A stretch of 64,000 nucleotides of DNA from an uncultured Bacillota bacterium (GCA_963804645.1 CAWDRG010000009.1:716693-780692); one strand, 5' to 3'; positions 3,812 through 20,449 are shown, numbered from the stretch's first letter. Translations and numbers: made by a program. Notes: generated by a model not told the origin, from the letters alone.

Positions 3812-3886
3812 GGGCGGTTAGCTCAGGGGTAGAGCGCATCCTTCACACGGATGAGGCCGCAGGTTCAAGACCTGCACCGCCCACCA
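3812..3886 (+). tRNA. tRNA-Val (anticodon CAC)
   Basis: Manual cloverleaf: acceptor GGGCGGT/ACCGCCC, D-arm GCTC-AGGGGTA-GAGC, anticodon arm CATCC-TTCACAC-GGATG, T-arm GCAGG-TTCAAGA-CCTGC, discriminator A, encoded CCA. Confidence 0.9.
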
Positions 3887-3924
3887 CACACCTCTTTGCA
3901 CCGGACATGACACGTGGAGCGACA

Positions 3925-4140
3925 ATGATCGTCCGATACGATAGCGACGCCGATGTGCTTCTTGTCAAATTGCGAGACGAGCCTCCGACCGACACTGTCG
4001 AAGAAGAAGGCGGGGTCATCATCAGCTACGGGGACAAAGGGCTCCCTGTGAGCGTGGAGTTCCTTAACGCTTCGCGGCACGGCTTTGTTCAGCGCCGGGA
4101 CCCAACTGTCACGTTGGCCGGTCTAAAGGCGTCAGCGTAG
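3925..4140 (+). CDS. DUF2283 family small protein
   Basis: MIVRYDSDADVLLVKL...GLPVSVEFLNAS matches the DUF2283 pattern (YDxxxDxLxIxL ... GxxVxxExxxAS). Sits directly downstream of tRNA-Val. Confidence 0.6.
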   Translation: MIVRYDSDADVLLVKLRDEPPTDTVEEEGGVIISYGDKGLPVSVEFLNASRHGFVQRRDPTVTLAGLKASA

Positions 4141-4149
4141 GCAACTCTT

Positions 4150-5830
4150 GATCTAATTTAGTTCGCCATGAAAAACGTGGGCGCAAACCCTTGTAAAATC
4201 TGGGTTTCCATGCGCGGTGCGAGCGCAAAATGATAGGATTCCCGACCCGAAGATCGAACTGATGCAACGGCCAAGCAACACCGATTCGACGCTCCTGGGA
4301 GGGAATCCCAATGCCGCTTCTTCGCGCTCCGGTTCCCGGCTCCTGCTCCCGAGGCCGGCCATGTTGAGGCTGCGGGACCCGCAAGGCTCGCTGTGGGATC
4401 AACTCCTCCCCGTCCAAGCGCGGACGCTGAGTGCCGAGTTGACCGCCGTGGATACGTGCTTGGCCGATGAGCGGTTCTTCGAGCCCTACCTGCAGCGCTT
4501 CAACACGCTGATCGGCCGGCCGACCGTCCGGTCGAGACGTACCTGCGCTTGATGTATCTGAAGCATCGGTACCGCCTCGGCTATGAGTCCCTGGTCAAGG
4601 AAGTCACGGACAGCCTGCACTGGCGCCGATTCTGCCATCTGGCGTTGGACGCGCCGGTGCCCGCACGCGACCACGCTGAGCAAGCTGACCCGGAAGTACG
4701 GGCCCGACGTCGTGCACGACTTGAATCGGGCCCTGGTCCAGCGCGCTCGCGAGCACAAGCTCATGCGGTGCCGCAAACTGCGCATGGATACGACGGTGGT
4801 GCAAGCGCCCATCGACTATCCGACGGACATCGGGCTGCTGGCCGACAGTGCGCGGGTCGTGACGCGAACGGTGCGCCAGCTCCAGGCCGCGGGCGTGGCG
4901 GTGCGGACGGGCTTGCGCTCCCGGGCCCGCAGCATCAAGCGCGCGCTGGCCACCGTCGGCCGCAGTTTGCGCATGCGGACGGACGAGGCGAAGCAGGCCG
5001 TGCTCAAGCAGACGGCCCGCGTGCTCACGGGCACGAAACAAATCGGCCGGCAGGCGGAGCGGGTGCTGCGCAACAGTCGGCACGTCGGGCAGCACATCGA
5101 CGCGAAGACGGCCGCGATGGTGAAGCGGACGCGCGTCCGGCTGCGGCGCCAACTCGAGTTGACGGCGCCGGGTCGTCACGCCAAACGCGGACGCGTCTCA
5201 AGGGGACGACGACGATTCCGGATCGGATCGTCAGCGTGTTTGATCCCGAAGCCCGTCCCATCCGCCGCGGCAAGCTGAGCGCGAAGACGGAGTTCGGCTA
5301 CAAGGCGCTGCTCACCGAGACCGAAGATCGGCTGATCACGCACTACGAAGTCCATATGCGAAATCCGGAAGACGGCAGTCTGCTGCCTGCGGCGTATGCG
5401 GGACACACCGAGACGGTGCCGGGGACGCCACACGTCGTCGCCACCGATCGCGGGTTTGGCACCAAAGACAATGAGGCATTTCTTGAACAAGGCCGGCGTG
5501 AAGCAGCATCAGCCTTCCCATAAAGGAAGGACGAGCGCGGCGCGCGCCGCGCATGAACGCCAACGATGGTTCCGTCGACAACAACGATGGCGCAGTGGGC
5601 AGGAAGCGACGATCAGCCTGGGCAGCCGCAAGTATGGATGGCGATACAGTCGATTGCGCGGTCGCAGCTGGTGCCGATACGTGGATCGGGTTCGGAATTC
5701 TGGCCCACAATCTGGACCGAATCGTGGTGTTGGGGACAACGACGATGAGCTTCAGCGCAAACGATCACTTCCACACTGGCCGCGCGAGCGCGTGCAGGCA
5801 CGATCTCGTGTTCGCCACCATTTAAGCCTC
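4150..5830 (+). mobile_element. degenerate IS5/IS1182-family insertion sequence
   Basis: About 1.6 kb carrying an IS5/IS1182-type transposase split over at least three reading frames. Boundaries are approximate; terminal inverted repeats could not be defined by eye. Confidence 0.6.
4361..5830 (+). pseudogene. IS5/IS1182-family DDE transposase, frameshifted pseudogene
   Basis: Hallmarks are spread over frames 2/1/2/1: N-terminal SLWDQLLP...FFEPYLQRF...GRPTV then YLRLMYLKHRYRLGYESLVKEV; mid PHATTLSKLTRKYGPDVVHDLNRAL...MDTTVVQAPIDYPTDIGLL; C-terminal IVSVFDPEARPIRRGK...EFGYKALLTE...ITHYEV...ATDRGFG...ILAHNLDRI. Confidence 0.7.
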
Positions 5831-5939
5831 TCGGCAGAACCGTGTCGACCGGAGCACCCGAGCACGCGGGCGGATCACGTCAGCGGAATGGCTTCCGCAG
5901 TCACCGTTTGCTCGGATCCTAACATGCGGTGGAGCGGCA

Positions 5940-6729
5940 GCAGCTCGTTCACGCCGCGCAGGGTACGGATGTACTGGATACGCGGCGCAGTGGATCACGG
6001 CGCGTGAACTCGCTGAACTGGAACCGGACATCGACCCAAACGTGATCGGCGACGGGCCCGTCATGTTTTTCCGCAACGAAGGGTGGCTTGACCCGGTTCC
6101 GCACACGCACGCAATGCTCTCTGCGGCGATCCGTACGGGTGCTGCGCTCCATACTGGCTCGCGGGTGATCGAAACGCGCATTGAGTGCGGACGCGTGGTG
6201 CAGGTGAAGACCGCGTCTGGCGCGACCTTCAATACCGAGGTCGCAGTGCGCTACGCCGGACGGTGGGTCAGTGACGTGGCCCGTCTCGCCGGGGTGACGA
6301 TCCCACTGGCACCGACCGTCGGGTTGCTCGTCACGACGACTCCGGCTCCCACGTGCCTCCGCCGCATCGTGCTCGTGCCCGATTGCGATCTTCGGCCCGA
6401 CGGCGCCGGCCGGCTGAGGCTGCACATGGAAGACACAGACGCCGATGCTTCCGCCGGCTCAAGACCTCGTTCGCCGGGCCGCCCGGGTGCTGCAGGGGTT
6501 CGACGGAGTCAAGGCGGAAGCGGCCAGAAGCGGCATACGACCAATGCCGGTAGACCGTCACTCGGTGGTCGGGCCGATTCCGGGTGTCGACGGATACTAT
6601 GTGGTGGTGACGCACAGCGCAGTGACACTGGCCGCCTTCCTCGGCCAAGCGGTGGCCGAGGAGATCGCGCATGGCCGTGTCGACGTTCACCTGACGCCCT
6701 TCCGACCGGCGAGGTTCTTTGTGGCGTAG
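5940..6729 (+). pseudogene. FAD-dependent oxidoreductase (DAO family) C-terminal fragment, truncated and frameshifted
   Basis: ELAELEPDIDPNVIGDGPVMFFRNEGWLDPVPHTHAMLSAAIRTGAALHTGSRVIE...VQVKTASGATFNTEVAVRYAGRWVSDVARLAGVTIPLAPTVGLLVTT is typical of the DAO C-terminal half. The C-terminus continues in another frame (GIRPMPVDRHSVVGPIPGVDGYYVVVTHSAVTL...), the N-terminal FAD-binding half is absent, and the fragment abuts the IS. Confidence 0.6.
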
Positions 6730-6970
6730 GAGGGACAGCGATCCGCTCGGAGCCGTGATCGTCGTTCGCAGTTTCAGAAGCGCAGGGACGTCACACCGCA
6801 CGCGCGAAGGAACGCCTAGGCTGCCGTCCCCACCGGGACGTCCTTGCTCGTGGGGCTCGGTTGTGATTGGCGAGATGAGGAGCCCGTCGATATGACGTAC
6901 GAACCTGTCCGGCCAAAGAGTTTTGCGGACCGACGTTCGATCGTCCCGGACCCGGGAGCCCACCGATCCC

Positions 6971-8710
6971 ATGGAATCTAATGAGTCTCATCCATCGACG
7001 AGTCTGGCACCGACATTTCGAGTCCGCGCGCTGGAGATCCACAGTGACTACGCATGGAATTTCGAATGGGTGCAAAAGGCGCTCGCCTTCATGGAACGGC
7101 GGGCGCTCAACGCACTAATCCTCCATCGGAACGACATCGTGGACAATGTCGTGTATCCGGGGCGATATTTCGGGGCCGATCGTCGTCCCTACCGGAACAT
7201 CGTGGAGCGCTACCAGGACAGCTTCAGGACATTGTACCGGTACACGCCGACGCGGCGAAGCCGGCCGCTTCAACATCGGGACTATCTGGTGCGGGTCATC
7301 GAGCAGGCCCGGCGGCGTGGCATCGACGTGTATCTCCAAAATAAGGAGCTGTGGTTTCCGGACATCCTGCTGGAACTCCACCCCGAAGTGTGGATCGACG
7401 GGACCGTCTGCGCCACGCACCCGTTTTGGTGGGAGTTCGTCGAGACGAAATACACCGAGCTGCTGGAGGACTTTCCGGGACTCGCCGGCATCATCACCTC
7501 GCCGGGCACGGGGGAGAGCCGGGTGTCGATCGCCGCGAATCGCTGCGCGTGCGATCGTTGTCGAGCTACCGCACCGCGCGACTGGTATCGCCGGCTGCTG
7601 GACGCCATGCGCGGCCCGATCGTACGCGCCGGGAAGCGCCTCGTGGTTCGAGACTTCGTATTCGACGCCGCGGCGCAGGGCGAATTGGCCGCGGCCATGG
7701 AAACGTTCCCACCAGACGTGGTCGTCTCCCTGAAGAACACGCCCCACGACTACTATCCAACGTTTCCCCACAATCCCCGCATCGGACGCGTTGGGGACCA
7801 TGCGCAGTGGGTCGAGTTTGACGTGATGGGTCAATACTTCGGCTGGGGGCTGGGGATCAGCGTGATGACCGACGACCTGCGCGCGCGGATGCGCTACGGG
7901 CGCGCCCGTGGGGTCTCCGGTGTGATCTTTCGGACCGATTGGGAAGGGCTCGAAGCGCACACGGCGTTCCACACACCGAATCTCCTCAGCCTGTACGCGG
8001 GATCGGCCCTGGCGGTGAATCTCGACACGCCCGCCGCGACGATCGCCGGCGACTGGCTCGACGGAGAAGATCTCCTCCGCCCCGATTTGGACGCCGCCTC
8101 TCGTACCGCCACCGCCGCGCGGGTCGCCGATGCCTTCGGGCGTACCTGGGACATCGTCCGGCGCAGCCTCTATCTCAACGATTGCGTCTTTTCCGACTCC
8201 AGCCTGTACCCCGTCAGCCTCGAACACGCGTGGTGGCTGGCGGAAGAGAAGAACAGTTTGCGCAACTGGGATCCGTCGAAATCGGACGCGCTCTCGGTCG
8301 TCGACGAGGCGCACGTTCGTGCGCTGCTCGAGGAGAAGGACGAGGCCGTCCGGTTGGTCGCCTGGCTGGCCGATGCGGTGGGCGAGCTTCAGGACGTGCT
8401 GACCGACGCCGCGTGGCGCGACCTCCAGTGGCGCGTTGATGTCTTTCGACGTTACGTCTTGGGATTTCGCACGATCGCGCACGCCTGCGTCCTGACGAAG
8501 TACCTCGCCGACGAGGCGGGGCGCGCCCGAGTCCCATTTGCCGACACGGCGGATGCGTTGTGGCAGGCGCGGCTCGGCGACCTCCGGGCGCTCGCCGCCG
8601 AATTCGACGAGTTCGCGGCGGCGACGTCGCTGCCGTACACGGTCTATCTGGTTCTGAATCCCGAACGCCTGCGAGCGCTCGCGAACGACCTCGAGGCTCG
8701 GCGAAGGTAG
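6971..8710 (+). CDS. uncharacterised ~580-aa protein, paralog A (putative TIM-barrel glycosidase-like; conserved C...CxCxxC)
   Basis: Long ORF, about 70% identical to paralog C and about 35-40% to paralog B in this window. Shared motifs HRNDIVD, GRYFG, NKELWFPD, SPGTGESR-x9-CACDRC, RLVVRDFVFD, KNTPHDYYPTFP, GQYFGWG, RGVSGVIFRTDWE. Start is taken at MESNESHP by alignment with paralog C; the alternative ATG at 6923 cannot be excluded. Confidence 0.7.
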   Translation: MESNESHPSTSLAPTFRVRALEIHSDYAWNFEWVQKALAFMERRALNALILHRNDIVDNVVYPGRYFGADRRPYRNIVERYQDSFRTLYRYTPTRRSRPLQHRDYLVRVIEQARRRGIDVYLQNKELWFPDILLELHPEVWIDGTVCATHPFWWEFVETKYTELLEDFPGLAGIITSPGTGESRVSIAANRCACDRCRATAPRDWYRRLLDAMRGPIVRAGKRLVVRDFVFDAAAQGELAAAMETFPPDVVVSLKNTPHDYYPTFPHNPRIGRVGDHAQWVEFDVMGQYFGWGLGISVMTDDLRARMRYGRARGVSGVIFRTDWEGLEAHTAFHTPNLLSLYAGSALAVNLDTPAATIAGDWLDGEDLLRPDLDAASRTATAARVADAFGRTWDIVRRSLYLNDCVFSDSSLYPVSLEHAWWLAEEKNSLRNWDPSKSDALSVVDEAHVRALLEEKDEAVRLVAWLADAVGELQDVLTDAAWRDLQWRVDVFRRYVLGFRTIAHACVLTKYLADEAGRARVPFADTADALWQARLGDLRALAAEFDEFAAATSLPYTVYLVLNPERLRALANDLEARRR

Positions 8711-8756
8711 GGGTCCCGCCGTCGCGGCGTTCGCGGCGCGCGGCGGCCGACGTATC

Positions 8757-10379
8757 CTATGGGGCGCGGTACACCGCGAGGCCGTCCTCCAACACGGTGC
8801 GGGCACGGCCCAGACTCAGCAACATCCTGAACTGATGCGGGTACTGGTGACGCTCGAGCGTTGGGGCCAGGCCCGTGAGATACTCGTCGAGGGCCCGCAG
8901 GCTCGCTGCCAGCGCGGTGTCCACGCTCGCGCGCGTCAGCGCTCCTTGACGCAACCCCTCGACGTAGAGGCTCACCTCCGTCAGCGCACGGAACCCGGCG
9001 ATGTACTGGACATACCATCCGAAACACTCCCGCAGCCATGCGTGAAACTCGGCCGGAATCGCACCCGACGAATGCTCCACCTCGCGGCGGAGCGCCGTGA
9101 TCTCCGACATGGCCTCGTCCTTCTCCGCCAACGCCGCGTCGATCCCGGAGGCATCCATTCGAAGATCGTTCGCTCTGGCCGGGTCCCAATCGACCAGCGA
9201 GTGCTTCCGCTCCATCGTCCACCATGCCTTACGCACGCTCAGCGGAAACTGACTGCTGTCGTGAAACACAAAATCTCGAAGGTAGATTCCTTTGCGGATC
9301 ACCGCCCAGGTGCGGTCCCACACCCCGGCCACGAAGCTGGCGGTATCCGCGTCAGCGGGCCACCCAGCTTCCTCCAGCCACGTCCGCAGGATCGATGCCG
9401 CGGGGGCGTCGTCGCCGCCCGCCAGTCGTGCCGCGGCGATCAGGTTCGCGCGGTTGGGCGTCTCGAGACACCACCAGTCGTTGACGCGCTCCCATTCGGT
9501 GCGGAAGAGGGCGCCGCTCACGCCCCTGGACTGAGCGTGGCGGAGGCGCTGCGCGAGATCGTCGCGCATGAAGACCGGAAAGACCCCCCATCCGTAGAAC
9601 TGCCCGTACACATCGTATTCCACCCACTGCTCGCGGCGCAGGGCGCCGATCGCCGGGTTGTCGGGAAACGTCGGGTAGAAATCGTGCGGGGTCACCTTCA
9701 TGCAGAAGATGACGTCGGCGGGGGCACGATTGACCGCCTCCGTGAGGGGACGGTGATCGGCCGGTCGGTAGGCGAAGTCCCGCACCGCCAAGCGGAGCCC
9801 CGCGTGCGCCAACGGGGCGTACACGCTGGCGATGATCTGCTCATACCAATCCGCGAGGGTCGTGTGCTCGCAGAGCGGACATCGACACTTGTGCTGCGCT
9901 CTCGAGGCGCGCCCCTCCGGGGAGCCGGGGCTCATGATCACGCCCGCCAACTGCGGGAAGTCCTCGGCCAGCTCGGTGAACTTCGCCCCGAGAAACTCGA
10001 ACCACACCGGCTCCGACGGGCAGATGCGTCCGTCTTTCAGCAGATGCGGGAAGCGCTCGAGCACCTCGTCGGGGAACGTCAGCTCCTTCAGTTCGAGCCA
10101 CACCGGGATGTCCTGGCGCGCCGCCAGTTCGAGAATCGACGTCAAGTAGGCGCGATTGTTGTGGATCGCGTTCTCGCCGCGACGCACTGGGGTGCTGTCC
10201 CATTCCGTGTACGGGTCGAAGTAGCGCTTCGGGAAGATAAGGCGTGGCCCGAGATCGGTATCGTGGAGGACGAGCGCGTTGAGATCGTGGCGCTTGGCGA
10301 AGGTGAGCGCTTCCACGATCCGCGGCCGCTCCCACATCCTCGTCCCGCAGAGCTCAAGACCCCGAAACTTCAGCGGCAC
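8757..10379 (-). CDS. uncharacterised ~540-aa protein, paralog B (same family as 6971-8710 and 12118-13839)
   Basis: GTG start with AGGAGG 6 nt upstream. Conserved NALVLHDTDL, KRYF, LKELTFPDEV, SPGSPEGR-x9-CRCPLC, LRLAVRDFAY, KVTPHDFYPTFP, GQFYGWG, RGVSGALFRTEWE. Convergent with paralog A. Confidence 0.7.
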   Translation of the reverse strand: MPLKFRGLELCGTRMWERPRIVEALTFAKRHDLNALVLHDTDLGPRLIFPKRYFDPYTEWDSTPVRRGENAIHNNRAYLTSILELAARQDIPVWLELKELTFPDEVLERFPHLLKDGRICPSEPVWFEFLGAKFTELAEDFPQLAGVIMSPGSPEGRASRAQHKCRCPLCEHTTLADWYEQIIASVYAPLAHAGLRLAVRDFAYRPADHRPLTEAVNRAPADVIFCMKVTPHDFYPTFPDNPAIGALRREQWVEYDVYGQFYGWGVFPVFMRDDLAQRLRHAQSRGVSGALFRTEWERVNDWWCLETPNRANLIAAARLAGGDDAPAASILRTWLEEAGWPADADTASFVAGVWDRTWAVIRKGIYLRDFVFHDSSQFPLSVRKAWWTMERKHSLVDWDPARANDLRMDASGIDAALAEKDEAMSEITALRREVEHSSGAIPAEFHAWLRECFGWYVQYIAGFRALTEVSLYVEGLRQGALTRASVDTALAASLRALDEYLTGLAPTLERHQYPHQFRMLLSLGRARTVLEDGLAVYRAP

Positions 10380-10389
10380 ACCGCGCCTC

Positions 10390-11226
10390 CTATCTCAGCG
10401 TCCCGACGGTAAAGCCGTGCAGCATGTACCGGCGCAGCAGCAGGGCAAAGGTCAGGACCGGCAGGATGGTCAGGCACCCGGCGGCCGCGACGATGCCCCA
10501 ATTGAGCTGCTCTTCCATCTCCATGAACGAGAGGATGGAGACCGGCGCGGTCACCGCGTTGAAGTTCGTCAGGACCAGCGCCGCGAGAAACGAGTTCCAG
10601 ATGTCGATGAACGACAGGATCGCCACCGCGACCAACCCCGGAGTGGCGAGGGGCATGACGATCCGGAAGAACGCGCCGATGAGGCCGCATCCGTCCACTT
10701 CGGCGGCGTCGATCAGTTCGCCGGGCACGGTCCGAAAGAACCCCAGCATGATCCAGATTACGAACGGGAGCCGCACCGCGACCTCGAACGCGGTCAGGGT
10801 CGAGACCCGGTCGATCAGGCCGAGCGCCCGCACGGCGAAATAGACCGGAATGATCGTGGCAACCGGCGGAAACCCATTCGGTATCAGTACCGCCAGCAGC
10901 AGCCACCACCGTTTGCCCCGGAACGGCAGGCGGGCGAACGCGAAGGCGACCATCGCGCCCAGCACGACCGCGGCGGCCGTGCCCCACACGGAGACGTTGA
11001 TGCTGTTCAGATAGTAGCGGCCGAACCCCGACTGGATCAGCTGCACGTAGTTCGTGAGCGTCGGCGGGAACCAGAACCGCGGCGGCTGCAGGAGGAGCAC
11101 CCGGTCGGGTTTCAACGACGTGAGTAGCATGTAGTAGATCGGGAACAGCGTGACGAGGACCACGAGGACCACGAGCCCGATCACCCCGGCGCCACGGAAC
11201 GTCCACCGCCGCCCGCGCCGCGTCAC
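10390..11226 (-). CDS. carbohydrate ABC transporter permease (MalG-like)
   Basis: Six-TM permease with the EAA-like loop (IDAAEVDGCGLIGAFFRIVMPL). GTG start with GAGGG SD, 11 nt after the upstream permease stop. Confidence 0.8.
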   Translation of the reverse strand: MTRRGRRWTFRGAGVIGLVVLVVLVTLFPIYYMLLTSLKPDRVLLLQPPRFWFPPTLTNYVQLIQSGFGRYYLNSINVSVWGTAAAVVLGAMVAFAFARLPFRGKRWWLLLAVLIPNGFPPVATIIPVYFAVRALGLIDRVSTLTAFEVAVRLPFVIWIMLGFFRTVPGELIDAAEVDGCGLIGAFFRIVMPLATPGLVAVAILSFIDIWNSFLAALVLTNFNAVTAPVSILSFMEMEEQLNWGIVAAAGCLTILPVLTFALLLRRYMLHGFTVGTLR

Positions 11227-11236
11227 CGCCGGACCC

Positions 11237-12121
11237 TCATTCGGCCTCGACCAGCCGCAGGTATAGAACATACAGCAGCACGAGCACGCCGAGCGATACC
11301 ACGACCATCGCCGCGGCGCTCCCCATCTGGAAGAACTGGAACGCCGCTTTGAAGATGTGCACGCTGAGCATGTCCGTCGCGTTTCCGGGCCCGCCCCCGG
11401 TCATCACAAAGGGCTCGGCGAACAGGCGAAACGCCTCCATCGCGCGCAACAGCGCGGCGACCAGCAGCGTGTCGAAGATCACCGGCACCGTCACGCGGGT
11501 AAAGCACCCCCACCGCGAGGCCCCGTCGAGCTGCGCCGCCTCGTAGAGTGCGCCCGGCACGGTTTCGAGCGCGGACAGGCTCAGCAGAAACGTGAACGGC
11601 GTCCAGTGCCAGACGTCCATCAGCATCACCGAAACGAGCGCCAGCCGCGTGCTGGTCAGCCAGGCCACGCCCGGCAGCCCGAGTAGCCGCAGGCCGGCGT
11701 TGATTGGACCGAGGGTGTCGTTGAAGAGGATGTACCAGATGAGTCCGACCACTGCCGGCGTGATTACCATCGGGGAGATCACGACCGTCTTCAGCAGGTC
11801 GTTGGCGCGCGCGCCCCCGTGAACGAAGACGGCGAGCGCGAGCCCCAGGGTGACCTCGACCACCGTGACGACGACCATGAAGCCCAGCGTGCGGCCGATC
11901 GAGCCGACAAACGCGGGATCGGCCGCCAGTTGGAGGTAGTTCTGCACGCCGGCGAACACCGGCGACGACTGCTCTTGCAGGTTCCAGGTCGTCAGGCTGA
12001 GGTAAATCGTGTACAGCGCCGGCAGGATGCGCCCAACGACCAGGTACGCCATCCCGGGTACGAGGAAAAACCACAGCGCGAGATCTCGCCGCCGCCGGAC
12101 CGAGACCGCCGGCGCAATCAC
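11237..12121 (-). CDS. carbohydrate ABC transporter permease (MalF-like)
   Basis: TM-rich with the ABC permease signature (YEAAQLDGASRWGCFTRVTVPVI). GTG start overlaps the stop of the upstream paralog C gene (GTGA), indicating translational coupling. Confidence 0.8.
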   Translation of the reverse strand: MIAPAVSVRRRRDLALWFFLVPGMAYLVVGRILPALYTIYLSLTTWNLQEQSSPVFAGVQNYLQLAADPAFVGSIGRTLGFMVVVTVVEVTLGLALAVFVHGGARANDLLKTVVISPMVITPAVVGLIWYILFNDTLGPINAGLRLLGLPGVAWLTSTRLALVSVMLMDVWHWTPFTFLLSLSALETVPGALYEAAQLDGASRWGCFTRVTVPVIFDTLLVAALLRAMEAFRLFAEPFVMTGGGPGNATDMLSVHIFKAAFQFFQMGSAAAMVVVSLGVLVLLYVLYLRLVEAE

Positions 12122-13839
12122 CGAAGGCGCGCCCGCAGGTCGTCCGCCAGCGCCCGGAGGCGCTCCGGGCTGAGCAGGATGTAGACTACGTGGGACAAGG
12201 ACGTGGATTGCGCCAACGCGTCGAACTCGGCCGCGAGCGCCTCGAGGTCGCTGAGCCGCGCATCGAGGGTCTTCCGCGCCTCGTGGACCCACTGTACGCG
12301 GTCGCCGGCGCCGTCCTCAGTGACCGCCTTGGTCAGGACGCAGGCGTGTCCGGCGGCGCGAAACGCGGCCGTATACCGGCGGAACACGTCGAAGCGGGTC
12401 ACGAGATCCCCGTGCGCGCTGTCGCTCAAGACGTCACCGAGGTCCGCGACCTCCGCGCAGAGCCTCTCAACCAGGCGCAGCGCGTCATCCTTCTCCTCGA
12501 GCAGGCGGCGGACGTTGTCGGGGTCGTCGACCCGGAGCGCGCCCGCCCGGGATGGATCCCAGTCCTTCAGGCTGTTCTTTTCTTCCGCCAGCCACCACGC
12601 GTGGTCCAGGCTGACCGGCAGGTTGCTGGAGTCCGAGAAGACGCAGTCGTTCATGTACAGGCTCCGCCGCACAATCTCCCAGGTTTGATCGAGCACGCGC
12701 GCGACGCGGTCCGCCGCGGCCAGCCGGACCGCGGGCGCCAGGCCCGGGCGCAGGAGGTTCTCCTGGTCGAGCCATTGCCCGACAACCGCGGCCCCGGGCG
12801 TTTCCAGATCCTGGGCGAGCGCGGCACCGGCATAGAGGCTGACCACGTTCGGGCTATGAAACGTCGTGTGCGCTTCGAGCCCTTCCCAGTCGGTGCGGAA
12901 CACCACGCCGCTGGCTCCGCAGGCGCGCGCATGGCGGAAGCGCACGCGGAGATCCTCCGTCATCACGGCGATCCCGATGCCCCAACCGAAATACTGACCC
13001 AACACGTCGAACTCGATCCACTGTTCGTGGGCGCCCACCCGTCCGATCCGGGGATTGTTGGGGAACGTCGGGTAGTAGTCGTGGGGTGTGTTCTTGAGTT
13101 CGATGACCACGTCTGCCGGCAGCGCCTCCATGGCGGCTACGATCTCGGCCTGTGCCGCCGCGTCGAAGACGAAGTCCCGCACTACGAGGCGCTTGCCCAC
13201 CCGCGCGATCGGCTCGTACATCGCTTCGAGCAGCTGCCGATACCATTCCCGGGGCGTGGTGGAGCGGCACCGTGCGCAGGTGCACCGGTTCGCCGAGATC
13301 GAAACGCGGCTCTCCCCGGTTGCGGGCGAGGTAATGATCCCTGCCAGCCCGGGCAGGTCTTCAAACAACTCCGTGTACTTCGTCCGGACGAACTCCCACC
13401 AAAACGGGGCAGTCGCGCACACCGTGCCGTTCTTCCAGAGGTCCGAGTGCAGTTCGAGCAGGATCTCCGGGAACCATAACTCTTTATTCTGGAGATACAC
13501 GTCGATGCCGTAGCGGTGGGCTTCGTGGACGACCCGCCGCAGATAGTCGCGCCGCTGCAACGGTCCACTGCGCCGCGTCGGCGTATACCGGTACAACGTG
13601 CGGTACATGTCTTGATACCGCTCGAAGATGTTGCGATACGTCCGCCGGTCCGCGCCGAAATATCGCCCCGGGAACACCACCTGATCGATGATGTCGTTCC
13701 GCTGCAGGGCTAGCGCGTTGAGGCCGTGCGCCTGCGCGAATCGGAGTGCTCGCTGCACCCAGGGAAAATCCCATACGTACTCGCTGTTGATTTCGAGCAG
13801 CCGGGTACGAAACACGGGCTCCGTTTCGCTGGTTTCCAT
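12118..13839 (-). CDS. uncharacterised ~575-aa protein, paralog C (same family)
   Basis: METSETEP start. LQRNDIIDQ, GRYFGADRR, NKELWFPE, SPATGESR-x9-CTCARC, RLVVRDFVFD, KNTPHDYYPTFPNNP, GQYFGWG, RACGASGVVFRTDWE. First gene after the solute-binding protein in the operon. Confidence 0.75.
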   Translation of the reverse strand: METSETEPVFRTRLLEINSEYVWDFPWVQRALRFAQAHGLNALALQRNDIIDQVVFPGRYFGADRRTYRNIFERYQDMYRTLYRYTPTRRSGPLQRRDYLRRVVHEAHRYGIDVYLQNKELWFPEILLELHSDLWKNGTVCATAPFWWEFVRTKYTELFEDLPGLAGIITSPATGESRVSISANRCTCARCRSTTPREWYRQLLEAMYEPIARVGKRLVVRDFVFDAAAQAEIVAAMEALPADVVIELKNTPHDYYPTFPNNPRIGRVGAHEQWIEFDVLGQYFGWGIGIAVMTEDLRVRFRHARACGASGVVFRTDWEGLEAHTTFHSPNVVSLYAGAALAQDLETPGAAVVGQWLDQENLLRPGLAPAVRLAAADRVARVLDQTWEIVRRSLYMNDCVFSDSSNLPVSLDHAWWLAEEKNSLKDWDPSRAGALRVDDPDNVRRLLEEKDDALRLVERLCAEVADLGDVLSDSAHGDLVTRFDVFRRYTAAFRAAGHACVLTKAVTEDGAGDRVQWVHEARKTLDARLSDLEALAAEFDALAQSTSLSHVVYILLSPERLRALADDLRARLR

Positions 13840-13867
13840 GTGCGTTCGACGCGCCAACCGCGCGTCC

Positions 13868-15271
13868 TTAGGAGAGCTTGATCGTATCCAGAGTGGTTTG
13901 AATCTGCCGCTGCGCGGTGCTCAAGGCGCTCTGGATGTTACCGCCGGTTAGCACCGACGAAATCGCCGTGCTGACCTGGTCGGCGATTTCCTGCGCGCGG
14001 AGGATGCTCGGATACGGCAGGACGCCCACGTCGGTTTGGGCGCCTGGATCGGCTTCCGCCCGGAGCACGTATCCGGCCGCAGGGTACTGCGCGATGGTCG
14101 CCTCGATCGCACGCGCGCGGCTCGGCATGTACCCGGGATGCTTCTTGGCCATGTCCACCTGTGCCTCCGTGGTCGAGGCCGCGATCAGCAGCTGCAGGGC
14201 GGCGGCTTTGTGCTCGGACCGCGACGACACGGCAATCACGCCCGGGCCGTCCCGGAAGGCATGCTTCCATCCCCGAGGGTGGTTCGGCTCCGCAGGGGGC
14301 AGCGCGTAGCCGATTTTCCCGTATACGGGCACGTCCGGCTTGATCGTGTTGAGCACCACGCGGTCAAAGTACTGCACGATCATCGCGGCGTGACCGCTCG
14401 CGAACAGGGCCGTGGATTCCGCGCTGCTGTCGTTGAGGTTGCTCGACGGCTGGATGGCCAGCAGGGCCTTGTACATCTGGGCGGCCGCGAGGCCGTTCGG
14501 CCCGTCAAACTCAGCCTTGCGGGTGCGCGGATTGTACAGATTGATCCCGTACGCGAGGATCATGTTCTCGTAACTGTGCCACAGATATACGCCCTTCTTG
14601 TTCGGGAACGCGCTCCCGTAGAAATCGGCATCGAGCGGCTTCCCCGCGAGCAGCTCGCCCCGCTTGCGGGTGAAGAACTGACCGATTTCCAGGAACTGCT
14701 GGTAGCTATTGGGCGGGGCGAGATCGTACCCGAAGCGTGCTTTGAACGCGGCTCGTTCGCGGGGATCCTCAAACAGATCCAGCCGATACGCCACCGCCGG
14801 CGTGCTCGTGGTCGTCGGGATTCCCAGGGTCCTATTCTGGAATCTGACCGCTCGCTGCGCCGCCTGCGTGAATTCGGGCCACGCAAGCGTGCTTTGGCTC
14901 CCGGTGCTCGCGATCAGGCCGTCCAGCACGTCGATCATCCCGCGATTGTAGAACTCGTACATGTTCTGAACGCCGAGGGTATAGATCAGATCCCAGGTGT
15001 TCGCGCCGCTGACAAAGTCGAGGACCACCTTTTGCGTCAGTTCGTCGCCGTTGAGGAATCGGGCCTGCAGGATCATCCCCAAGGTCTTCGCAATCTCGCT
15101 CATCTTATCGGCGAGCGCGACCTCGTGGACCTCAGGCGACGTGATGAAGTTGATCGTGACGCCTTGGAACTGTCCTTTCGGCTGTGCCGTAACCGGCCCA
15201 GGGGTCACCCCTGCGACCACGGCGGCCCCGCTCGCGCCGACTGCAAGCTTCAAGAGCGTCCGTCGGTCCAT
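13868..15271 (-). CDS. ABC transporter substrate-binding protein (family 1, sugar-type) with Tat-like signal
   Basis: MDRRTLLKLAVGASGAAVVAG twin-arginine-type signal peptide, followed by a family-1 extracellular solute-binding domain. Confidence 0.8.
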   Translation of the reverse strand: MDRRTLLKLAVGASGAAVVAGVTPGPVTAQPKGQFQGVTINFITSPEVHEVALADKMSEIAKTLGMILQARFLNGDELTQKVVLDFVSGANTWDLIYTLGVQNMYEFYNRGMIDVLDGLIASTGSQSTLAWPEFTQAAQRAVRFQNRTLGIPTTTSTPAVAYRLDLFEDPRERAAFKARFGYDLAPPNSYQQFLEIGQFFTRKRGELLAGKPLDADFYGSAFPNKKGVYLWHSYENMILAYGINLYNPRTRKAEFDGPNGLAAAQMYKALLAIQPSSNLNDSSAESTALFASGHAAMIVQYFDRVVLNTIKPDVPVYGKIGYALPPAEPNHPRGWKHAFRDGPGVIAVSSRSEHKAAALQLLIAASTTEAQVDMAKKHPGYMPSRARAIEATIAQYPAAGYVLRAEADPGAQTDVGVLPYPSILRAQEIADQVSTAISSVLTGGNIQSALSTAQRQIQTTLDTIKLS

Positions 15272-15599
15272 TGTCCGCGTCGCCACTGCCTTCACCCCAT
15301 TCATCGGCAGGTCTGCACGCCACTTAAAAACATGCTACCGGGTGCCGTTGGAACCTCATATCGGATCGCGACCTGATTTGCCCGTACGATGCCCGCCCCA
15401 TGCCATGCTCGGCCGGGATCGTGTCCAATCGTGTCCATTAGAAGCGCCCACCGCAGGCCACAACGATTCCAGAGACCGAGGCAATCGTCGAGCGTGCCCG
15501 GCGGATCTTGCGGTGGCTACTCTGATGCTGATATTCTGAATTAGGAAGCTGCAAGATCAGCCCGGGGGGCCCGCCGCCATTTACCTGGATCTGCAGGTT

Positions 15600-16175
15600 C
15601 CTGCGTCGCACGTCAAGGCGTACTGCCGTACACGTCGGCTGGAGCTCGGTGACAATCGAGGACCTCGATTCGGTCACAGCTCACGTGGCGCAGGGACCGG
15701 TCCCGACGAGCTCGGTGAGGGGCTTCGCCCCGGCGCCGTCGACGAGCTCGTTGGGCATCATCGCGGAGGCCCCGGCCGGCGGCGGCATCAGCGACAGCAG
15801 CGGGGCGAACGGTGTCTTGAGCTTCAGCACCACCGTGTCGCTGCCGGAGGCCGTGACCGACTCGACCGACTGCTACACGAACGTGCCGTACGAGTTGACC
15901 CGGCCCCACCGATTCAGCGAGGCGATCACATCGTCCGGCCCCATCGTCTTGCCGTTGTGGAACGGGACGTTCCGCCGGAGCGTGAACGCGTACGTCAACC
16001 CGCCCTTGCTGACCTCGTAGCCGGAGACGAGCGAGGGCTGCACGCGCCAATTGGCATCGAACGCGAACAGTTCCTCGAATACGCCGAGCGTCATGTTCGC
16101 CGTGAGCGAGGCCGGCTGGACGATCACGTCGAGCGTGAGCGGTTCGCCGACCGCGTCGATGCCTCTCAGACTCAC
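15600..16175 (-). pseudogene. ABC substrate-binding protein family 5 (Dpp/Opp-type) remnant
   Basis: N-terminal family-5 SBP motifs (FEELFAFDANWRVQPSLVSGYEVSKGGLTYAFTLRRNVPFHNGKTMGPDDV) terminate prematurely. A downstream piece with LVGTGP lies in another frame and about 60 aa too close, indicating deletion plus frameshift. Confidence 0.5.
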
Positions 16176-16211
16176 TCGGCGTCTGCCCGCCTCCGTTCGC
16201 GGTCGGCGCCA

Positions 16212-16946
16212 CTACAGATGCAGGGAGCGTTCCATGTTGAACTTGTAGCGGTCTCCCCGATACACCGCCTGGCGGTACTCGACTCTGTCGCCGTCGGGAC
16301 CATAGATGAGCGACGTTACGTTGAAGACGGCCGTCGGCGCGACCAGGTCCAGCATGTCGGCCTCCTCCGCGGTCGCCATGCGGGCCTCAAACGTCTGCTC
16401 CGCTTTGAGCTCGCGCACGCCGGCCCGCAGCGCGTAGTGCTCCGACGGCGCCGCCACGTCGCAGAACGCGACCAAGACCTCGTGCATCTTCGGCGCGGAG
16501 AAATAACTCTTGTAGAGGACGAGCGGTTCGCGGTCGCCAAGCCCGAGCCACACGAGCCGAATGAGCATGGCATTTGGCGGCACCGAGAGCAGGCGGCCGA
16601 GCACGAAATCGGCGGGCTCCTGCGTGCGCGCGATTACCCGCAGCGCGGGCGCCATGTCCTGGGCCGCCACCGTCTCGCGGAAGACGGTCGCATGCGCGAG
16701 CGGCTGATTGATCGGTCCGTGCCCGGTGACGAAGGTGCCGCGTCCCTGGACCTTCTTCAACATCCCGACCCGGGCGAGTCCGTCGAGAGCTTGGCGGACC
16801 GTGGAGCGGCTCACGCCGAACTGCTCGGACAACTCCCGTTCCGAGGGCAGTTGAGCGCCCGTCTCCCAATCCCCCCGCTGGATCCGGGTATTGATCGACC
16901 CGACGAGCTGCCGGTAGAGCGGCTGCTGGTCTTTGCTGTCGATCAC
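16212..16946 (-). CDS. GntR/HutC-family transcriptional regulator (wHTH + UTRA domain)
   Basis: PLYRQLVGSINTRIQRGDWETGAQLPSERELSEQFGVSRSTVRQALDGL is a GntR HTH. The C-terminal UTRA-like effector domain puts it in the HutC subfamily. Confidence 0.85.
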   Translation of the reverse strand: MIDSKDQQPLYRQLVGSINTRIQRGDWETGAQLPSERELSEQFGVSRSTVRQALDGLARVGMLKKVQGRGTFVTGHGPINQPLAHATVFRETVAAQDMAPALRVIARTQEPADFVLGRLLSVPPNAMLIRLVWLGLGDREPLVLYKSYFSAPKMHEVLVAFCDVAAPSEHYALRAGVRELKAEQTFEARMATAEEADMLDLVAPTAVFNVTSLIYGPDGDRVEYRQAVYRGDRYKFNMERSLHL

Positions 16947-17128: not shown

Positions 17129-17518
17129 TTAGGACGGACTCTCCAGATGCTCCGGATCCTCGACGGGGACAAAATCGTTTCCGGCTGGCGCGAAAATTTC
17201 GACCAGACATAGAGTGTCTGATCCCGCAGCGCTGAGCGCATGGCGTGTGTGCGGAGGAATGAAGACGACATCGTCTTTGTCGACGAAGCGCTCCTCCCCC
17301 TCCACCGTGAGCCGGCCCCGACCTGATAGAATCCAGTAAATGTTCTCAGAGTGATCGTGCGAATGGTATGGTCCTGGAGGTCCGGAGGGTGCAAGGCGTA
17401 CGATGCGCACATCAACGTGCCGCGCCCCGATGGCGTCTGTCGCCAAGAGGATCGCCGTCCCGCGGTTGTTCCTCAGCGGCACCGTCCCGCACTGCGAAAC
17501 GTTCATCACCCGGTACAT
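17129..17518 (-). CDS. cupin-domain protein
   Basis: GPYHSHDHSENIYWILSGRGRLTVEGEE...DVVFIPPHTRHAL contains both conserved cupin motifs. Confidence 0.7.
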   Translation of the reverse strand: MYRVMNVSQCGTVPLRNNRGTAILLATDAIGARHVDVRIVRLAPSGPPGPYHSHDHSENIYWILSGRGRLTVEGEERFVDKDDVVFIPPHTRHALSAAGSDTLCLVEIFAPAGNDFVPVEDPEHLESPS

Positions 17519-17605
17519 GCTCGGCCTCCCCTGTTCATACACGCAGCGGGACCCGCGCGCAGCGTCGCGACGCGGACCGCGCTTCATGCCGGCGCGACGT
17601 CCGTC

Positions 17606-18295
17606 TCAACCGGCGCTGATGAACTCGCATCCCTGCTCGCGCAGCCCGCGTTCGATGTTGGCAATATTGGTGACGTCGCCGCGTCGCAACACATCTTGGA
17701 CGCCGGCATAGTGTCCCAGCAACTTCTGCGTCTCCTCGGCGATCTGTGCCGCGTCGGCAGCCCGCACGGCCACGATGCCGTCGAGGTCGGCCACGATGAT
17801 ATCCCCGGGATGGACGACCACGTGTCCGCACGCGATCGGTACGTTCACCTCACCCGGACCGTCGATTGGTCCCATCATCGCCGACACGCCCCGGGCGAAG
17901 ACTGGGAGTCCGTCCTCCTGAATTTCCGTGACGTCGCGCACGGCGCCGTCCATGACAACCCCGGCCAGCCCCCGGTGCAGTAATCCCCGGCAGACGTTCC
18001 CGCCGATGAGCGCTCCGCGAAGGCTTCCGCGGGCGTTGATGACAAGCACGTCGCCGCGGCGGGTCTGCTGCATTGCGGCTTTGATCACATTGAAGGCTCC
18101 GGTTGGCACCGAGACCGTGACGGCGGACCCAATCACCCGCCCCATCGGGCGGTAGGCCGCTTGAATTCCGTTGTCCATGGTGCCAGCCCGATTCATCGCG
18201 TCCGAAATATCCGGCGTGCGCAGTCCGGCAAACTTCGCCAAGAGCGTCGGCTCGGCGCGCAGCGCGGTCGCGTACACACGAAATCCTACTGGCAT
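17606..18295 (-). CDS. RraA-family protein (4-hydroxy-4-methyl-2-oxoglutarate aldolase / oxaloacetate decarboxylase-like)
   Basis: RraA/MenG-like fold signature. Start is at MPVGFRV (codon 54 of the 17606-18454 ORF). Confidence 0.7.
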   Translation of the reverse strand: MPVGFRVYATALRAEPTLLAKFAGLRTPDISDAMNRAGTMDNGIQAAYRPMGRVIGSAVTVSVPTGAFNVIKAAMQQTRRGDVLVINARGSLRGALIGGNVCRGLLHRGLAGVVMDGAVRDVTEIQEDGLPVFARGVSAMMGPIDGPGEVNVPIACGHVVVHPGDIIVADLDGIVAVRAADAAQIAEETQKLLGHYAGVQDVLRRGDVTNIANIERGLREQGCEFISAG

Positions 18296-18450
18296 CTCAG
18301 CCTCCTCTACCTCGCAGTTTGGCTCCGTCCGATCCATGCTCGCTCGCGGTGTTGCGCGTCGGTGACGCTGAGGGAGCCTACGGGGGCCTGCAGCGCCGGG
18401 GCAGATTCCGGCGGCGTGGCGGAGTTGTACGACGAACACTCCGTTCCATG

Positions 18451-19332
18451 TCATCCACTCCGCTTCAAGCGCGGGTCTAGCGCGTCCCGAAGTCCGTCAC
18501 CCATCAAGTTGAAGCTGACGGCCACCACGAGAATGGCGAGCCCCGGAAACGTGATCAGTAACGGTGCGCTCGTAATGAAATTCCTCGCCGTCGACAGCAT
18601 CGCGCCCCACTCCGGCGTGGGAGGCTGTGGACCGAGGCCGAGAAAGCTCAAACTCGAGGCCGTGAGCATTGCCGTGGCAAGCAACAGGGTGGTCTGGACG
18701 ATTAAGGGAGGGACGATGTTCGGGGCCACGTGACGCAGCATAATGCGCCCGGGTCCCGCACCCATGGCCGTGGCGGCGAGCGTATACTCCTCTGCTTTGA
18801 CGACCAAGGTAGAGCCGCGGGCAACCCGGGCGAACGCCGGAATCGAATACATGCCGACGGCGATCATGACGTTGGTCGTGCCGACGCCCAGCGCTGCGAT
18901 GATGCCGATGGCCAGCAGAAAGCCCGGGAGCGCCATGAGGATATCGAGCACGCGGGACAGCACCGCATCCACCGCGCGCCCGAAGTACCCGGCTGCAAGC
19001 CCCGCGAGTGCGCCGATCGGCAGGGCTAACGCCACGGCTCCAATGGTGATGAACAACGTCTCGCGAGACCCCACGATGATCCGCGAAAGAAGATCACGTC
19101 CCAATTCGTCGGTCCCGAGCCAATGGCTGCGCGAGGGCCACTGGAGCTGATGTCCGAGACTGATCGACGTCGTCGAGTAGGGAGCGAGCGAGGTGGCAAA
19201 GCATGCGGTCAGCAGAACCACTCCGATCACGATCATCCCGGCTGCGGCCGGGCGATGGCGCAGAAATTGCCGCGCTGCGATCCTCGCATACGAGGTGGGC
19301 GGCGCGGGCGGCGTGCCGTAGGTGCCGATCAT
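18451..19332 (-). CDS. ABC transporter permease, DppC/OppC-like
   Basis: TM-rich with the binding-protein-dependent transport signature. N-terminal start is uncertain. Confidence 0.75.
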   Translation of the reverse strand: MIGTYGTPPAPPTSYARIAARQFLRHRPAAAGMIVIGVVLLTACFATSLAPYSTTSISLGHQLQWPSRSHWLGTDELGRDLLSRIIVGSRETLFITIGAVALALPIGALAGLAAGYFGRAVDAVLSRVLDILMALPGFLLAIGIIAALGVGTTNVMIAVGMYSIPAFARVARGSTLVVKAEEYTLAATAMGAGPGRIMLRHVAPNIVPPLIVQTTLLLATAMLTASSLSFLGLGPQPPTPEWGAMLSTARNFITSAPLLITFPGLAILVVAVSFNLMGDGLRDALDPRLKRSG

Positions 19333-19443
19333 GGGCCGCGGCGGCTGCGGCCCAACCGCGCGCCGAACCTGACCCGACGCGGGAGTGTTCCCGCGCCCGG
19401 CGGGACGGCCCGCGGGGGGCAGCTCGTTCCGTCCCGCATCGGA

Positions 19444-20364: not shown

Positions 20365-20449
20365 CAGCGGGCGCGCGAGACGCCGCCATAGCGTTGCCGG
20401 ACGAGGCCGTATGCCCTCGGCCGGCGGTGGACGGCCATCGCGGAAACGC

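Follow-up and report, generated by a model that had tools for sequence, protein, structure and literature searches.

Three divergent paralogs of an uncharacterised, GH67-related protein family, candidate glycosidases, at an ABC importer locus of a Bacillota bacterium

Introduction

The closest described relatives of the proteins reported here are the enzymes of glycoside hydrolase family GH67, alpha-glucuronidases that trim plant xylan and act on aldouronic acids with inversion, such as AguA of Geobacillus stearothermophilus (1k9d/1mqq) and GlcA67A of Cellvibrio japonicus (1gql). These proteins consist of an N-terminal beta domain, a barrel and a C-terminal helical domain, and they dimerise via the helical domain. 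In AguA numbering, Glu285 is the catalytic acid, and Asp364 and Glu392 are the bases. Bacterial GH67 enzymes are intracellular and work after oligosaccharide import. A second family of similar fold is GH138, the alpha-galacturonidases of the BT0997 family (6hze/6hzf), found in a Bacteroides rhamnogalacturonan-II locus. Here, we analysed a stretch of 64,000 nucleotides from an uncultured Bacillota bacterium (the window), in which an earlier note, made from the sequence alone, had pointed out three paralogs of an uncharacterised family within a sugar-uptake locus.

Results and Discussion

Three full-length paralogs accompany a CUT1-type importer

The genes of the locus were as follows.

6971-8710, + strand: paralog A, 579 aa, A-type subfamily; lies outside the transporter operon as an additional copy, convergent with B (ORF and translation)
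8757-10379, - strand: paralog B, 540 aa, B-type subfamily; final gene of the transporter operon (ORF and BLASTP)
10390-11271, - strand: ABC permease 2 (BPD_transp_1, Pfam E 1.3e-10); gene callers on identical contigs start it at 11226
11237-12122, - strand: ABC permease 1 (BPD_transp_1, Pfam E 8e-15 on the longer ORF)
12118-13839, - strand: paralog C, 573 aa, A-type subfamily; in the operon between the solute-binding protein and the permeases (ORF and BLASTP)
13868-15304, - strand: solute-binding protein (SBP) of CUT1 type (SBP_bac_1, Pfam E 2.5e-19); first gene of the operon
16212-16946, - strand: GntR/UTRA (HutC-type) regulator (Pfam GntR 1.8e-20, UTRA 1.9e-20); upstream of the operon

Gene callers set the same ATG starts for A, B and C on metagenome contigs of identical sequence, and the start of permease 1 is uncertain, lying either at the GTG at 12122, which overlaps the stop of C, or at 12052, as called elsewhere (271 aa). 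The genes flanking the paralogs showed the make-up of a CUT1 carbohydrate ABC importer, namely an SBP_bac_1 protein plus two BPD_transp_1 permeases. The SBP has an N-terminal export signal with a hydrophobic stretch after RR, and its comparison with PDB sequences gave only a weak match, to CbpB (8e-5). No ABC ATPase gene was present within 8.7-16.9 kb of the window; the ATPase of CUT1 importers is often encoded elsewhere. Promoter and terminator scans performed no better than on shuffled sequence, and the GntR/UTRA regulator is tied to the operon by position only. The importer and GntR genes are as the earlier note described them; the word "sugar" in its "sugar-uptake locus" was drawn from the transporter class, and the cargo may be acidic. 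Neither a signal peptide nor a transmembrane segment was found in A, B or C, which are predicted to be intracellular, like the GH67 enzymes. The operon has the order SBP-C-permease-permease-B; a small solute would enter through the CUT1 system and be cleaved in the cytoplasm by the enzymes of the operon, with the convergently transcribed A as an additional copy. A transposase fragment and a truncated oxidoreductase gene adjoin A.

Pairwise BLASTP alignments of the three proteins were collinear over the entire length and far beyond chance, with identities of 68% for A and C (579 aa, 784 bits), 38% for A and B (564 aa, E 1e-114) and 37% for C and B (560 aa, E 7e-116), in agreement with three full-length copies and with the roughly 70% and 35-40% estimated beforehand. 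B-type sequences of other phyla, at 11 other loci, were 44-53% identical to B and only 32-39% identical to A or C, indicating that the split between A and B is ancient and predates the phyla. The A/C split is younger than that (dS 1.24). Orthologs of A, B and C are all present in the organism of the related contig L001, so the A/C split is older than the divergence from that organism. These results bear out the suggestion that the copies differ in age and did not arise by a recent duplication. Measured against the L001 orthologs, dN/dS was 0.15 for A, 0.20 for B and 0.13 for C, and all three genes are under purifying selection. The transposase fragment and the truncated oxidoreductase gene beside A might speak for redundant recent duplicates or decaying pseudogenes without functional differentiation, but such a reading is hardly tenable: it is refuted by the pre-phylum A/B split together with the dN/dS values, and the intact reading frames throughout and the conservation of all three copies in the L001 relative also argue against it.

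Remote kinship with the GH67 lineage

Against Pfam-A and NCBIfam, no model reached its cut-off for A, B or C. The best sub-threshold Pfam model was GH67M (A, 13.5 bits; C, 13.0 bits; cut-off, 23.5), which B did not match, and none of the three matched Glyco_hydro_67N or 67C. The single sequences of A, B and C matched no PDB sequence. Among the 240 close homologs listed, all names were "hypothetical" or "uncharacterized" apart from one UniRef label, "DUF4838 domain-containing". A literature search returned no description of this family, and for DUF4838 it returned only GH163/GH185 papers, concerning a domain absent from A, B and C. The profile searches gave no confident assignment to a characterised family, and the family is uncharacterised, as had been claimed. 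The earlier remark that no glycoside hydrolase family could be named with confidence needs a refinement: the proteins are no orphans and form a remote branch of the GH67/GH138 lineage.

This kinship was apparent from the predicted structures and from profile comparison. The AF2 model of A (pLDDT 90.9) consists of a (beta/alpha)8 barrel from residue 18 to about 350 and a helical domain at 355-578; that of B (pLDDT 92.5) shows the same two parts in the same order. Foldseek comparison with the PDB ranked GH67 first and GH138 second for both A (E 4.6e-13 and 4.4e-11) and B (E 1.3e-14 and 6e-14), with TMq of 0.55-0.65; GH67 E285N and E292A mutant entries were among the matches. A profile of the family searched against PDB sequences gave GH67 AguA as its sole match (E 3e-4), spanning the barrel and the helical domain. 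Sub-threshold Pfam matches were obtained for 13 of 45 family members with GH67M and for 5 of 45 with GH67C, and the GH67M gathering score was passed by relatives further away, which matched the family profile at E 1e-30 to 1e-46. Other distant relatives show weak GH67N and GH67C signals or fusions to CE15/AXE-like esterase or DHDPS-family domains.

The barrel and the helical C-terminal domain are shared with GH67 at an identity of 12-14%. However, the first barrel strand begins as early as residue 18 of A and residue 5 of B, indicating that the N-terminal domain of the three-domain GH67 architecture is missing. The likeness to GH138 is in fold alone: 6hze gave no sequence match with the single sequences, nor with the profile at E<=10, and the GH138 protein has about 300 residues more. 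Within the GH67 lineage, the family forms a very distant branch devoid of the N domain, and its link to GH138 is one of fold.

A different affiliation would make A, B and C substrate-assisted beta-N-acetylhexosaminidases of GH20/GH84 type, which would process amino-sugar oligosaccharides after import and be controlled by the GntR/UTRA protein as a NagR-like regulator. We consider this very improbable. GH20 and GH84 trailed GH67/GH138 by 4-5 orders of magnitude in Foldseek (TMq 0.37-0.51) and aligned over only about 300 barrel residues. The loop after strand 4 reads S-P-G-T-G-E-S-R, so that A, B and C lack the adjacent Asp-Glu or Asp-Asp that separates GH20/GH84 and the DUF4838 families GH163 and GH185 from them; the whole-chain fold scores are likewise far weaker for those families. 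Neither PF16126 (DUF4838) nor PF00728 matched A, B or C at E<=1; Glyco_hydro_20 matched 1 of 45 family members, at E 0.3, and DUF4838 gave weak matches only in distant multidomain relatives. We gave up the amino-sugar substrate suggested by the regulator, since the type of regulator varies from locus to locus: LysR, AraC-type response regulators, LacI and IclR occur at related loci, and GntR/UTRA is not conserved.

A conserved centre with an invariant Gln and a Cys motif

In an alignment of 121 family sequences, 36 residues were at least 97% conserved, and in the model of A the polar residues among them are found at the C-terminal end of each of the eight strands. A, B and C share 35 of the 36; the exception is the otherwise conserved His52 position, where C has Gln. 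Two groups of these residues were located in A.

7514-7834, + strand: putative catalytic centre of A, with E182 (7514-7516), K255-N-T-P-H259-D260 (7733-7750), E282 (7814-7816) and Q288 (7832-7834), at least 97% conserved
7409-7561, + strand: invariant Cys motif of A, with C147 (7409-7411) and C192-x-C194-x-x-C197 (7544-7561), in at least 97% of the 121 members; the latter translates as CACDRC

The profile alignment pairs the family's KNtPhD with KNGPMD of AguA, AguA D364 included, so that K-N-x-P-x-D is common to both; the equivalences are K255 to K359, D260 to D364, E282 to E386 and Q288 to E392. Counterpart to the acid E285 of AguA may be E182, by a manual alignment shifted by one residue and drawn through an intermediate sequence. 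In contrast to GH67, the E392 carboxylate is absent, its position being an invariant Gln in the family and Glu in several intermediate relatives. The GH67 mechanism is thus not transferable unchanged. In BhGlcA67, the 4-O-methyl group is recognised by Trp152, Glu160, Asn201-Val202-Asn203 and Lys283 (PMC8056927). The N-V-N position, after strand 2, approximately corresponds to H52-R53-N54-D in the family, and the Lys is missing before E182, both as read from a weakly aligned region through the intermediate P0354.

By analogy with GH67, A, B and C would hydrolyse a glycoside by acid/base chemistry on the C-terminal side of the barrel, with E182 as the acid. The water would be positioned and activated by D260 with the aid of E282 and H259, and Q288 would stand in for the second GH67 base. 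Should such activity be shown, the GH67 catalytic centre would have been rebuilt with one carboxylate fewer.

At 20 positions, many of them beside the catalytic-type residues, A-type and B-type sequences are fixed differently. Taken with the 35 of 36 conserved residues retained in all copies, this agrees with the earlier proposal of diversification, not redundancy. The A/C-type and B-type proteins would share one catalytic centre lined by different fixed residues, and most likely differ in the linkage or aglycone that they recognise within one substrate class.

The Cys4 motif, a further difference from GH67, probably holds a structural zinc. The GH42 beta-galactosidase of Thermus A4 has a structural zinc cluster of Cys106/150/152/155, which we take to resemble the family's spacing (one Cys, about 45 residues, then CxCxxC, after the strand-4 acid). 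GH42 membership was set aside, since GH42 ranked only midway among the fold matches.

Related loci encode importers and regulators beside the family genes

The family comprises 887 clusters at 50% identity and occurs in soil, peat and gut bacteria, among them Alpha- and Betaproteobacteria, Clostridia including Enterocloster and Mediterraneibacter, Spirochaetes, Verrucomicrobia and Acidobacteria. Neighbours within 6 kb were counted at 83 loci with a family ORF. The family usually has CUT1 ABC or TctABC importers as neighbours: CUT1 permeases were found near it in 36 loci, followed by TctA (18/83) and TctC (17/83), regulators, SDR proteins (16/83) and 2-hydroxyacid dehydrogenases (10/83). The TctC partners are Bug-family SBPs, Tct importers being of carboxylate type, and the commonest neighbouring SBP type most resembled UgpB, which binds glycerol-3-phosphate and glycerophosphodiesters. 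We clustered 4178 neighbouring ORFs and took a Pfam census of 123 further neighbours, which recovered importers, regulators, SDR, 2-hydroxyacid dehydrogenase, a few RraA-like aldolases, AKR and MFS proteins; classical uronate-pathway genes and a second glycoside hydrolase family were not recurrent among the surveyed neighbours. GH28 and sulfatases stand near some members. The family thus differs from GH67 in occurring in multi-paralog arrays with Tct or CUT1 importers and not with xylan-utilisation genes.

This context allows for a protein of GH67-like fold that is no glycosidase and instead converts a small anionic metabolite, such as an ester, ether or phosphodiester of a hydroxy-acid or glycerol derivative, with products feeding the SDR, 2-hydroxyacid dehydrogenase and RraA-type aldolase. 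The invariant Gln in place of a catalytic Glu would suit it, as would the many loci with regulator, importer and family genes alone, devoid of a sugar kinase, isomerase or second glycoside hydrolase; the recurrent oxidoreductases and RraA-like aldolases and the Tct importers point the same way, and with UgpB-like SBPs a non-carbohydrate anionic substrate would also fit. We nevertheless regard this reading as possible but unlikely: every detectable homolog of known function is a glycosidase, the conserved acidic residues at strands 4, 6 and 7 suit a glycosidase centre, CUT1 systems carry mostly oligosaccharides, and GH28 and sulfatases lie beside some members.

We favour, with moderate confidence, that A, B and C are functional cytoplasmic glycosidases that cleave an imported small, probably acidic glycoside, the subfamilies differing in linkage or aglycone. 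From the activities of the relatives, the Tct importers at many related loci and the esterase/aldolase fusions in distant relatives, an anionic glycoside of uronic-acid type is the most likely kind of substrate. Against this view stand the invariant Gln at the E392 position, the apparently different residues at the N-V-N position, the UgpB-like SBPs, and the finding that neither classical uronate-catabolic genes nor another glycoside hydrolase family recurred among the neighbours. The family can credibly be proposed as a new glycoside hydrolase family; if activity is shown, it would probably found one in CAZy, with about 900 sequence clusters. A bolder proposal, which we hold to be doubtful, would see here a new enzyme class that uses the GH67 scaffold with a rebuilt centre, Gln taking the place of the second base and a His-Asp and a Cys4 metal site being added. 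Different paralogous subunits, assembled together or working one after another, would handle an anionic small molecule outside the known glycosidase families. This would be a new activity, more than a new specificity and possibly other than simple hydrolysis.

Whatever the chemistry, the paralogs might be subunits of one hetero-oligomeric enzyme instead of independent enzymes with a substrate each. Several copies occurred in 26 retained loci, and multi-copy loci nearly always mix subfamilies (A-type with B-type and/or a third type) and do not hold duplicates. A 4-nt overlap between consecutive family ORFs is frequent (L055, L057, L053, L047, L013 and L022), which suggests coupled translation, and dimerisation of GH67 through the helical domain would offer a precedent. 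However, 57 of the 83 loci are single-copy, indicating that the protein can work alone, and A in the window is transcribed separately and convergently; the full catalytic set in every copy fits independent enzymes equally well. We judge a hetero-oligomer to be rather improbable.

The recurrence of a regulator, an importer and 1-4 paralogs with no other hydrolase suggests a self-contained route for a common, unrecognised nutrient, and naming the imported compound would annotate hundreds of "hypothetical" operons. The gene order of the window, SBP-[A-type]-permease-permease-[B-type], was also observed in an Acetobacteraceae genome and in a 90% relative.

Paralogs A, B and C in the putative sugar-uptake locus

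We analyzed the three paralogs and their locus, which carried the following features.

6971-8710, + strand: paralog A, long ORF, 579 aa
8757-10379, - strand: paralog B, long ORF, 540 aa
10390-11271, - strand: second BPD_transp_1 permease
11237-12122, - strand: first BPD_transp_1 permease
12118-13839, - strand: paralog C, long ORF, 573 aa
13868-15304, - strand: exported SBP_bac_1 binding protein (SBP)
16212-16946, - strand: GntR/UTRA regulator

The ATG starts of A, B and C were those chosen by independent gene callers on identical metagenome contigs. The pairwise alignments, collinear from end to end, showed 68% identity for A and C (579 aa aligned, 784 bits), 38% for A and B (564 aa, E 1e-114) and 37% for C and B (560 aa, E 7e-116). 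These values agree with the approximately 70% (A-C) and 35-40% (B) estimated in the earlier note, and the ABC-transporter/GntR setting was also recovered as described there. On the minus strand, the genes from SBP through C and both permeases to B are closely packed, with gaps of ~10-66 nt, and the first permease may start at a GTG that overlaps the stop codon of C. A is transcribed convergently. On its upstream side come, in order, a tRNA-Val (3812-3886, +), a DUF772 transposase fragment (4549-5523, +) and, immediately before A, a truncated DAO gene for an FAD oxidoreductase (6042-6758, +); 3812-6758 looks scarred by an insertion sequence. The SBP carries an export signal, and A, B and C are cytoplasmic proteins with neither a signal peptide nor a membrane segment.

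The identical arrangement (A, B, permease, permease, C, SBP) was observed in L001, a metagenome contig of a related organism, whose orthologs are 89% (A), 88% (B) and 92% (C) identical to the window copies, with dN/dS of 0.15, 0.20 and 0.13, respectively. A, B and C are paralogs that are functional and under selection, and their family is large and uncharacterised. B shares 44-53% identity with B-type proteins from other phyla, which are only 32-39% identical to A or C (the A-type), indicating that the A/B split is ancient. The A/C split (dS 1.24) is younger, yet older than the divergence of the window from L001. The copies thus differ in age, as had been proposed, and are not a recent duplication.

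Remote homology and predicted fold

Profile HMM searches of Pfam-A and NCBIfam gave no match above cut-off for A, B or C, which bears out their description as members of an uncharacterised family; literature searches also found no description of it. In Pfam-A, the GH67 middle domain (GH67M) matched A (13.5 bits) and C (13.0 bits) below the cut-off of 23.5, and B gave chance-level matches only. No match to NCBIfam or to PDB sequences was obtained with any of the three. When a profile of 45 family sequences was run against all PDB sequences, the sole match was AguA, the GH67 alpha-glucuronidase of Geobacillus stearothermophilus (E 3e-4), in one stretch of the barrel and one of the helical domain; 13 of the 45 members showed weak GH67M matches. 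Of 1.84 billion cluster representatives searched with a profile, 887 matched at E<=1e-3, 570 of them reaching <=1e-10 and 151 reaching <=1e-30. Among the more distant relatives, two exceed the Pfam gathering score of GH67M, one of them fused to a DHDPS-family domain; three show weak GH67N+DUF4838+GH67C signals, and two are fused to AXE1/glucuronoyl-esterase-like domains.

Structure prediction with Foldseek, suggested in the earlier note, was carried out for A and B. In both AlphaFold2 models (pLDDT 90.9 and pTM 0.91 for A; 92.5 and 0.92 for B), a (beta/alpha)8 barrel of eight strands leads into a ~220-residue domain made up entirely of helices. The models matched GH67 alpha-glucuronidases (E 4.6e-13 for A, 1.3e-14 for B; TMq 0.54-0.60) and GH138 alpha-galacturonidase (E 4.4e-11 and 6e-14; TMq 0.58-0.65), and GH20 and GH84 were 4-5 orders weaker in E (TMq 0.36-0.51). 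These results showed that the fold resembles those of GH67 and GH138 and that the proteins are remote homologs of GH67. From the fold, the profiles and the distant relatives together, the family belongs to the GH67 lineage as a remote branch that lacks the N-terminal domain, and its members are very likely GH67-related barrel enzymes without a described function.

Membership of A, B and C in an already characterised family was not found. GH67 itself was rejected because the Pfam scores are sub-threshold, the N-terminal domain is absent, one catalytic carboxylate is missing and, in a rough alignment, the GH67 specificity motif does not appear to be kept; GH138, GH20/GH84 and DUF4838 were likewise rejected. 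The family is probably a new glycoside hydrolase family. It offers CAZyme discovery a good and concrete starting point, though nothing surprising in principle.

The conserved centre

Across 121 aligned members representing all subfamilies, 36 residues were >=97% conserved. In each of the eight barrel strands, the polar ones lie at the C-terminal end or just past it, forming a dense conserved centre on the catalytic face.

Conserved polar residues by barrel strand (A numbering)
Strand 1: E22
Strand 2: H52
Strand 3: K125, E126
Strand 4 (loop): E182
Strand 5: R227
Strand 6: K255, H259, D260
Strand 7: E282, D284, Q288
Strand 8: R321, W324, E325

The HMMER alignment to AguA places K255-N-T-P-H-D260 over K359-N-G-P-M-D364, E282 over E386 and Q288 over E392. 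In GH67, the general bases are D364 and E392 and the acid is E285 (AguA numbering); PDB titles name the mutants E285N and E386Q (AguA) and E292A (Cellvibrio). The E392 position is Glu (GEYYG/GEYFG) in several intermediate relatives of ~520 aa, e.g. P0354, P0367 and P0380, and an invariant Gln in the window family. E182 falls one residue off E285 when aligned through the conserved strand 4 'P-x-x-G-G-(hydrophobic)3'; because this alignment is indirect, their equivalence is only probable. E182 and D260/E282 are putative catalytic residues. C147 and C192-x-C194-x-x-C197 are also invariant. GH42 enzymes have a structural zinc with a similar Cys pattern, and this analogy suggests a putative structural zinc site.

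All conserved residues are present in A, B and C except at the His52 position of C, where codon 46 is Gln ('LALQRND'), as in the L001 ortholog (15171-16910). His occupies this site, at the end of strand 2, in 118 of the 121 members; the change is lineage-specific, at a near-invariant residue of the active-site face. Comparison of 57 A-type with 15 B-type sequences gave twenty positions that are fixed differently in the two, many of them beside catalytic-type residues (R53E, T180S, I187R, Y261F, Y289F, D323E, S326R), a pattern that would be expected of one chemistry with diverged substrate pockets.

Gene neighbourhoods in other genomes

When one genome per species was scanned, 131 relatives were obtained; the 79 loci retrieved belong to Bacillota, gut Clostridia, Alpha- and Betaproteobacteria, Spirochaetes, Actinomycetes, Verrucomicrobia, Acidobacteria and one Bacteroidota. 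ORFs were called in all loci, the 4178 proteins were clustered, and neighbours <=6 kb from a family gene were counted in 83 loci.

Neighbours of family genes (loci of 83)
CUT1 permeases: 36
SBP_bac_1, two clusters: 29 + 7
AraC-type response regulator: 19
Histidine kinase: 19
TctA: 18
TctC: 17
Short-chain dehydrogenase (SDR): 16
LysR: 15
TctB: 11
2-hydroxyacid dehydrogenase (2HADH): 10
LacI: 10

The family is systematically linked to solute importers, and the co-occurrence with sugar ABC transporters that the earlier note wished checked is borne out by the CUT1 permeases. UgpB is the nearest match of the SBP type seen most often (E 6e-39), the window's own SBP matched the PDB only weakly, and the TctC proteins belong to the Bug family of carboxylate binders. 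No second glycoside hydrolase family and no uronate-pathway enzyme turned up in a Pfam census of 123 additional neighbours, which did contain a few genes for MFS, EamA, RraA-like aldolase and aldo-keto reductase proteins.

Two to four family genes occur in 26 retained loci (29 before overlapping ORF artefacts were removed). Apart from the window lineage and locus L028, these are mixes of different subfamilies, not duplicates, showing that ancient subfamilies co-occur. Consecutive family ORFs frequently overlap by 4 nt, including different-subfamily paralogs (L055 6604-11710, L057 6635-11680, L053 17345-20736, L013 9941-13407), which points to coupling of their translation and perhaps to hetero-oligomers. 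An Acetobacteraceae chromosome reads LysR, SBP, A-type, permease, permease, B-type and two further family genes, without other enzymes; the window order SBP-C-permease-permease-B equals its first five genes past LysR. Spirochaete and Bacteroidota loci read SDR-TctBAC, two or three family genes, IclR and 2HADH.

A divergent subgroup (~35% identity to A) occupies 14 loci of several phyla (L058, L063, L064, L067, L070, L072, L073, L075, L076, L078-L080, L082, L083; ~11.7-13.7 kb in each). In 14/14, the next gene encodes an ADP-ribosylglycohydrolase-domain protein of ~650 aa, with PF03747 in its N-terminal half (E 1e-35 to 1e-38) and 350 C-terminal residues that matched no assigned domain; an SGNH esterase often comes next.

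Creatinase_N/M24 peptidase and SDR genes lie near the family gene in Chelatococcus and Paenibacillus thalictri (L003 19520-20704; L004 15935-17125); this shared neighbourhood may be coincidence, because the M24 proteins are only 23% identical.

Proposed activity and substrate

GH67 is nearest in way of working, as an intracellular enzyme of barrel and helical domain that trims imported oligosaccharides. By analogy, the family proteins would act as glycosidases on an imported solute, which we consider somewhat favoured. An acidic, uronic-acid-type substrate is hinted at, independently but not decisively, by the characterised relatives with long alignments, all uronidases (GH67, GH138, GH115), by Tct importers in about a fifth of the loci, by the glucuronoyl-esterase-like or DHDPS-family fusions of distant relatives, and by GH28 near the family in Enterocloster; a uronic acid as the glycone itself is a tentative assignment. 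Alternatively, the activity may be non-canonical, as Gln at the E392 position, neighbourhoods without uronate-catabolic genes and UgpB-like binding proteins would allow.

Other features of the window

A second transport cluster (17129-24185, -, plus 22218-23183, +) encodes a cupin, an RraA-like aldolase, OppC/OppB-like permeases, SBP_bac_5, an MBL-fold hydrolase and a DHDPS-family enzyme. Since RraA-like genes adjoin family genes in five other loci and one distant relative is a DHDPS fusion, a functional link between this cluster and the family is possible. Unrelated to the paralogs, 26948-30622 (-) encodes a DegT/DnrJ-type aminotransferase, a creatininase-family amidohydrolase and an M81/MlrC-type metallopeptidase. 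At 42000-52000 the G+C content reaches 0.73; over the initial 26 kb and the final 8 kb of the window it is 0.60-0.67.
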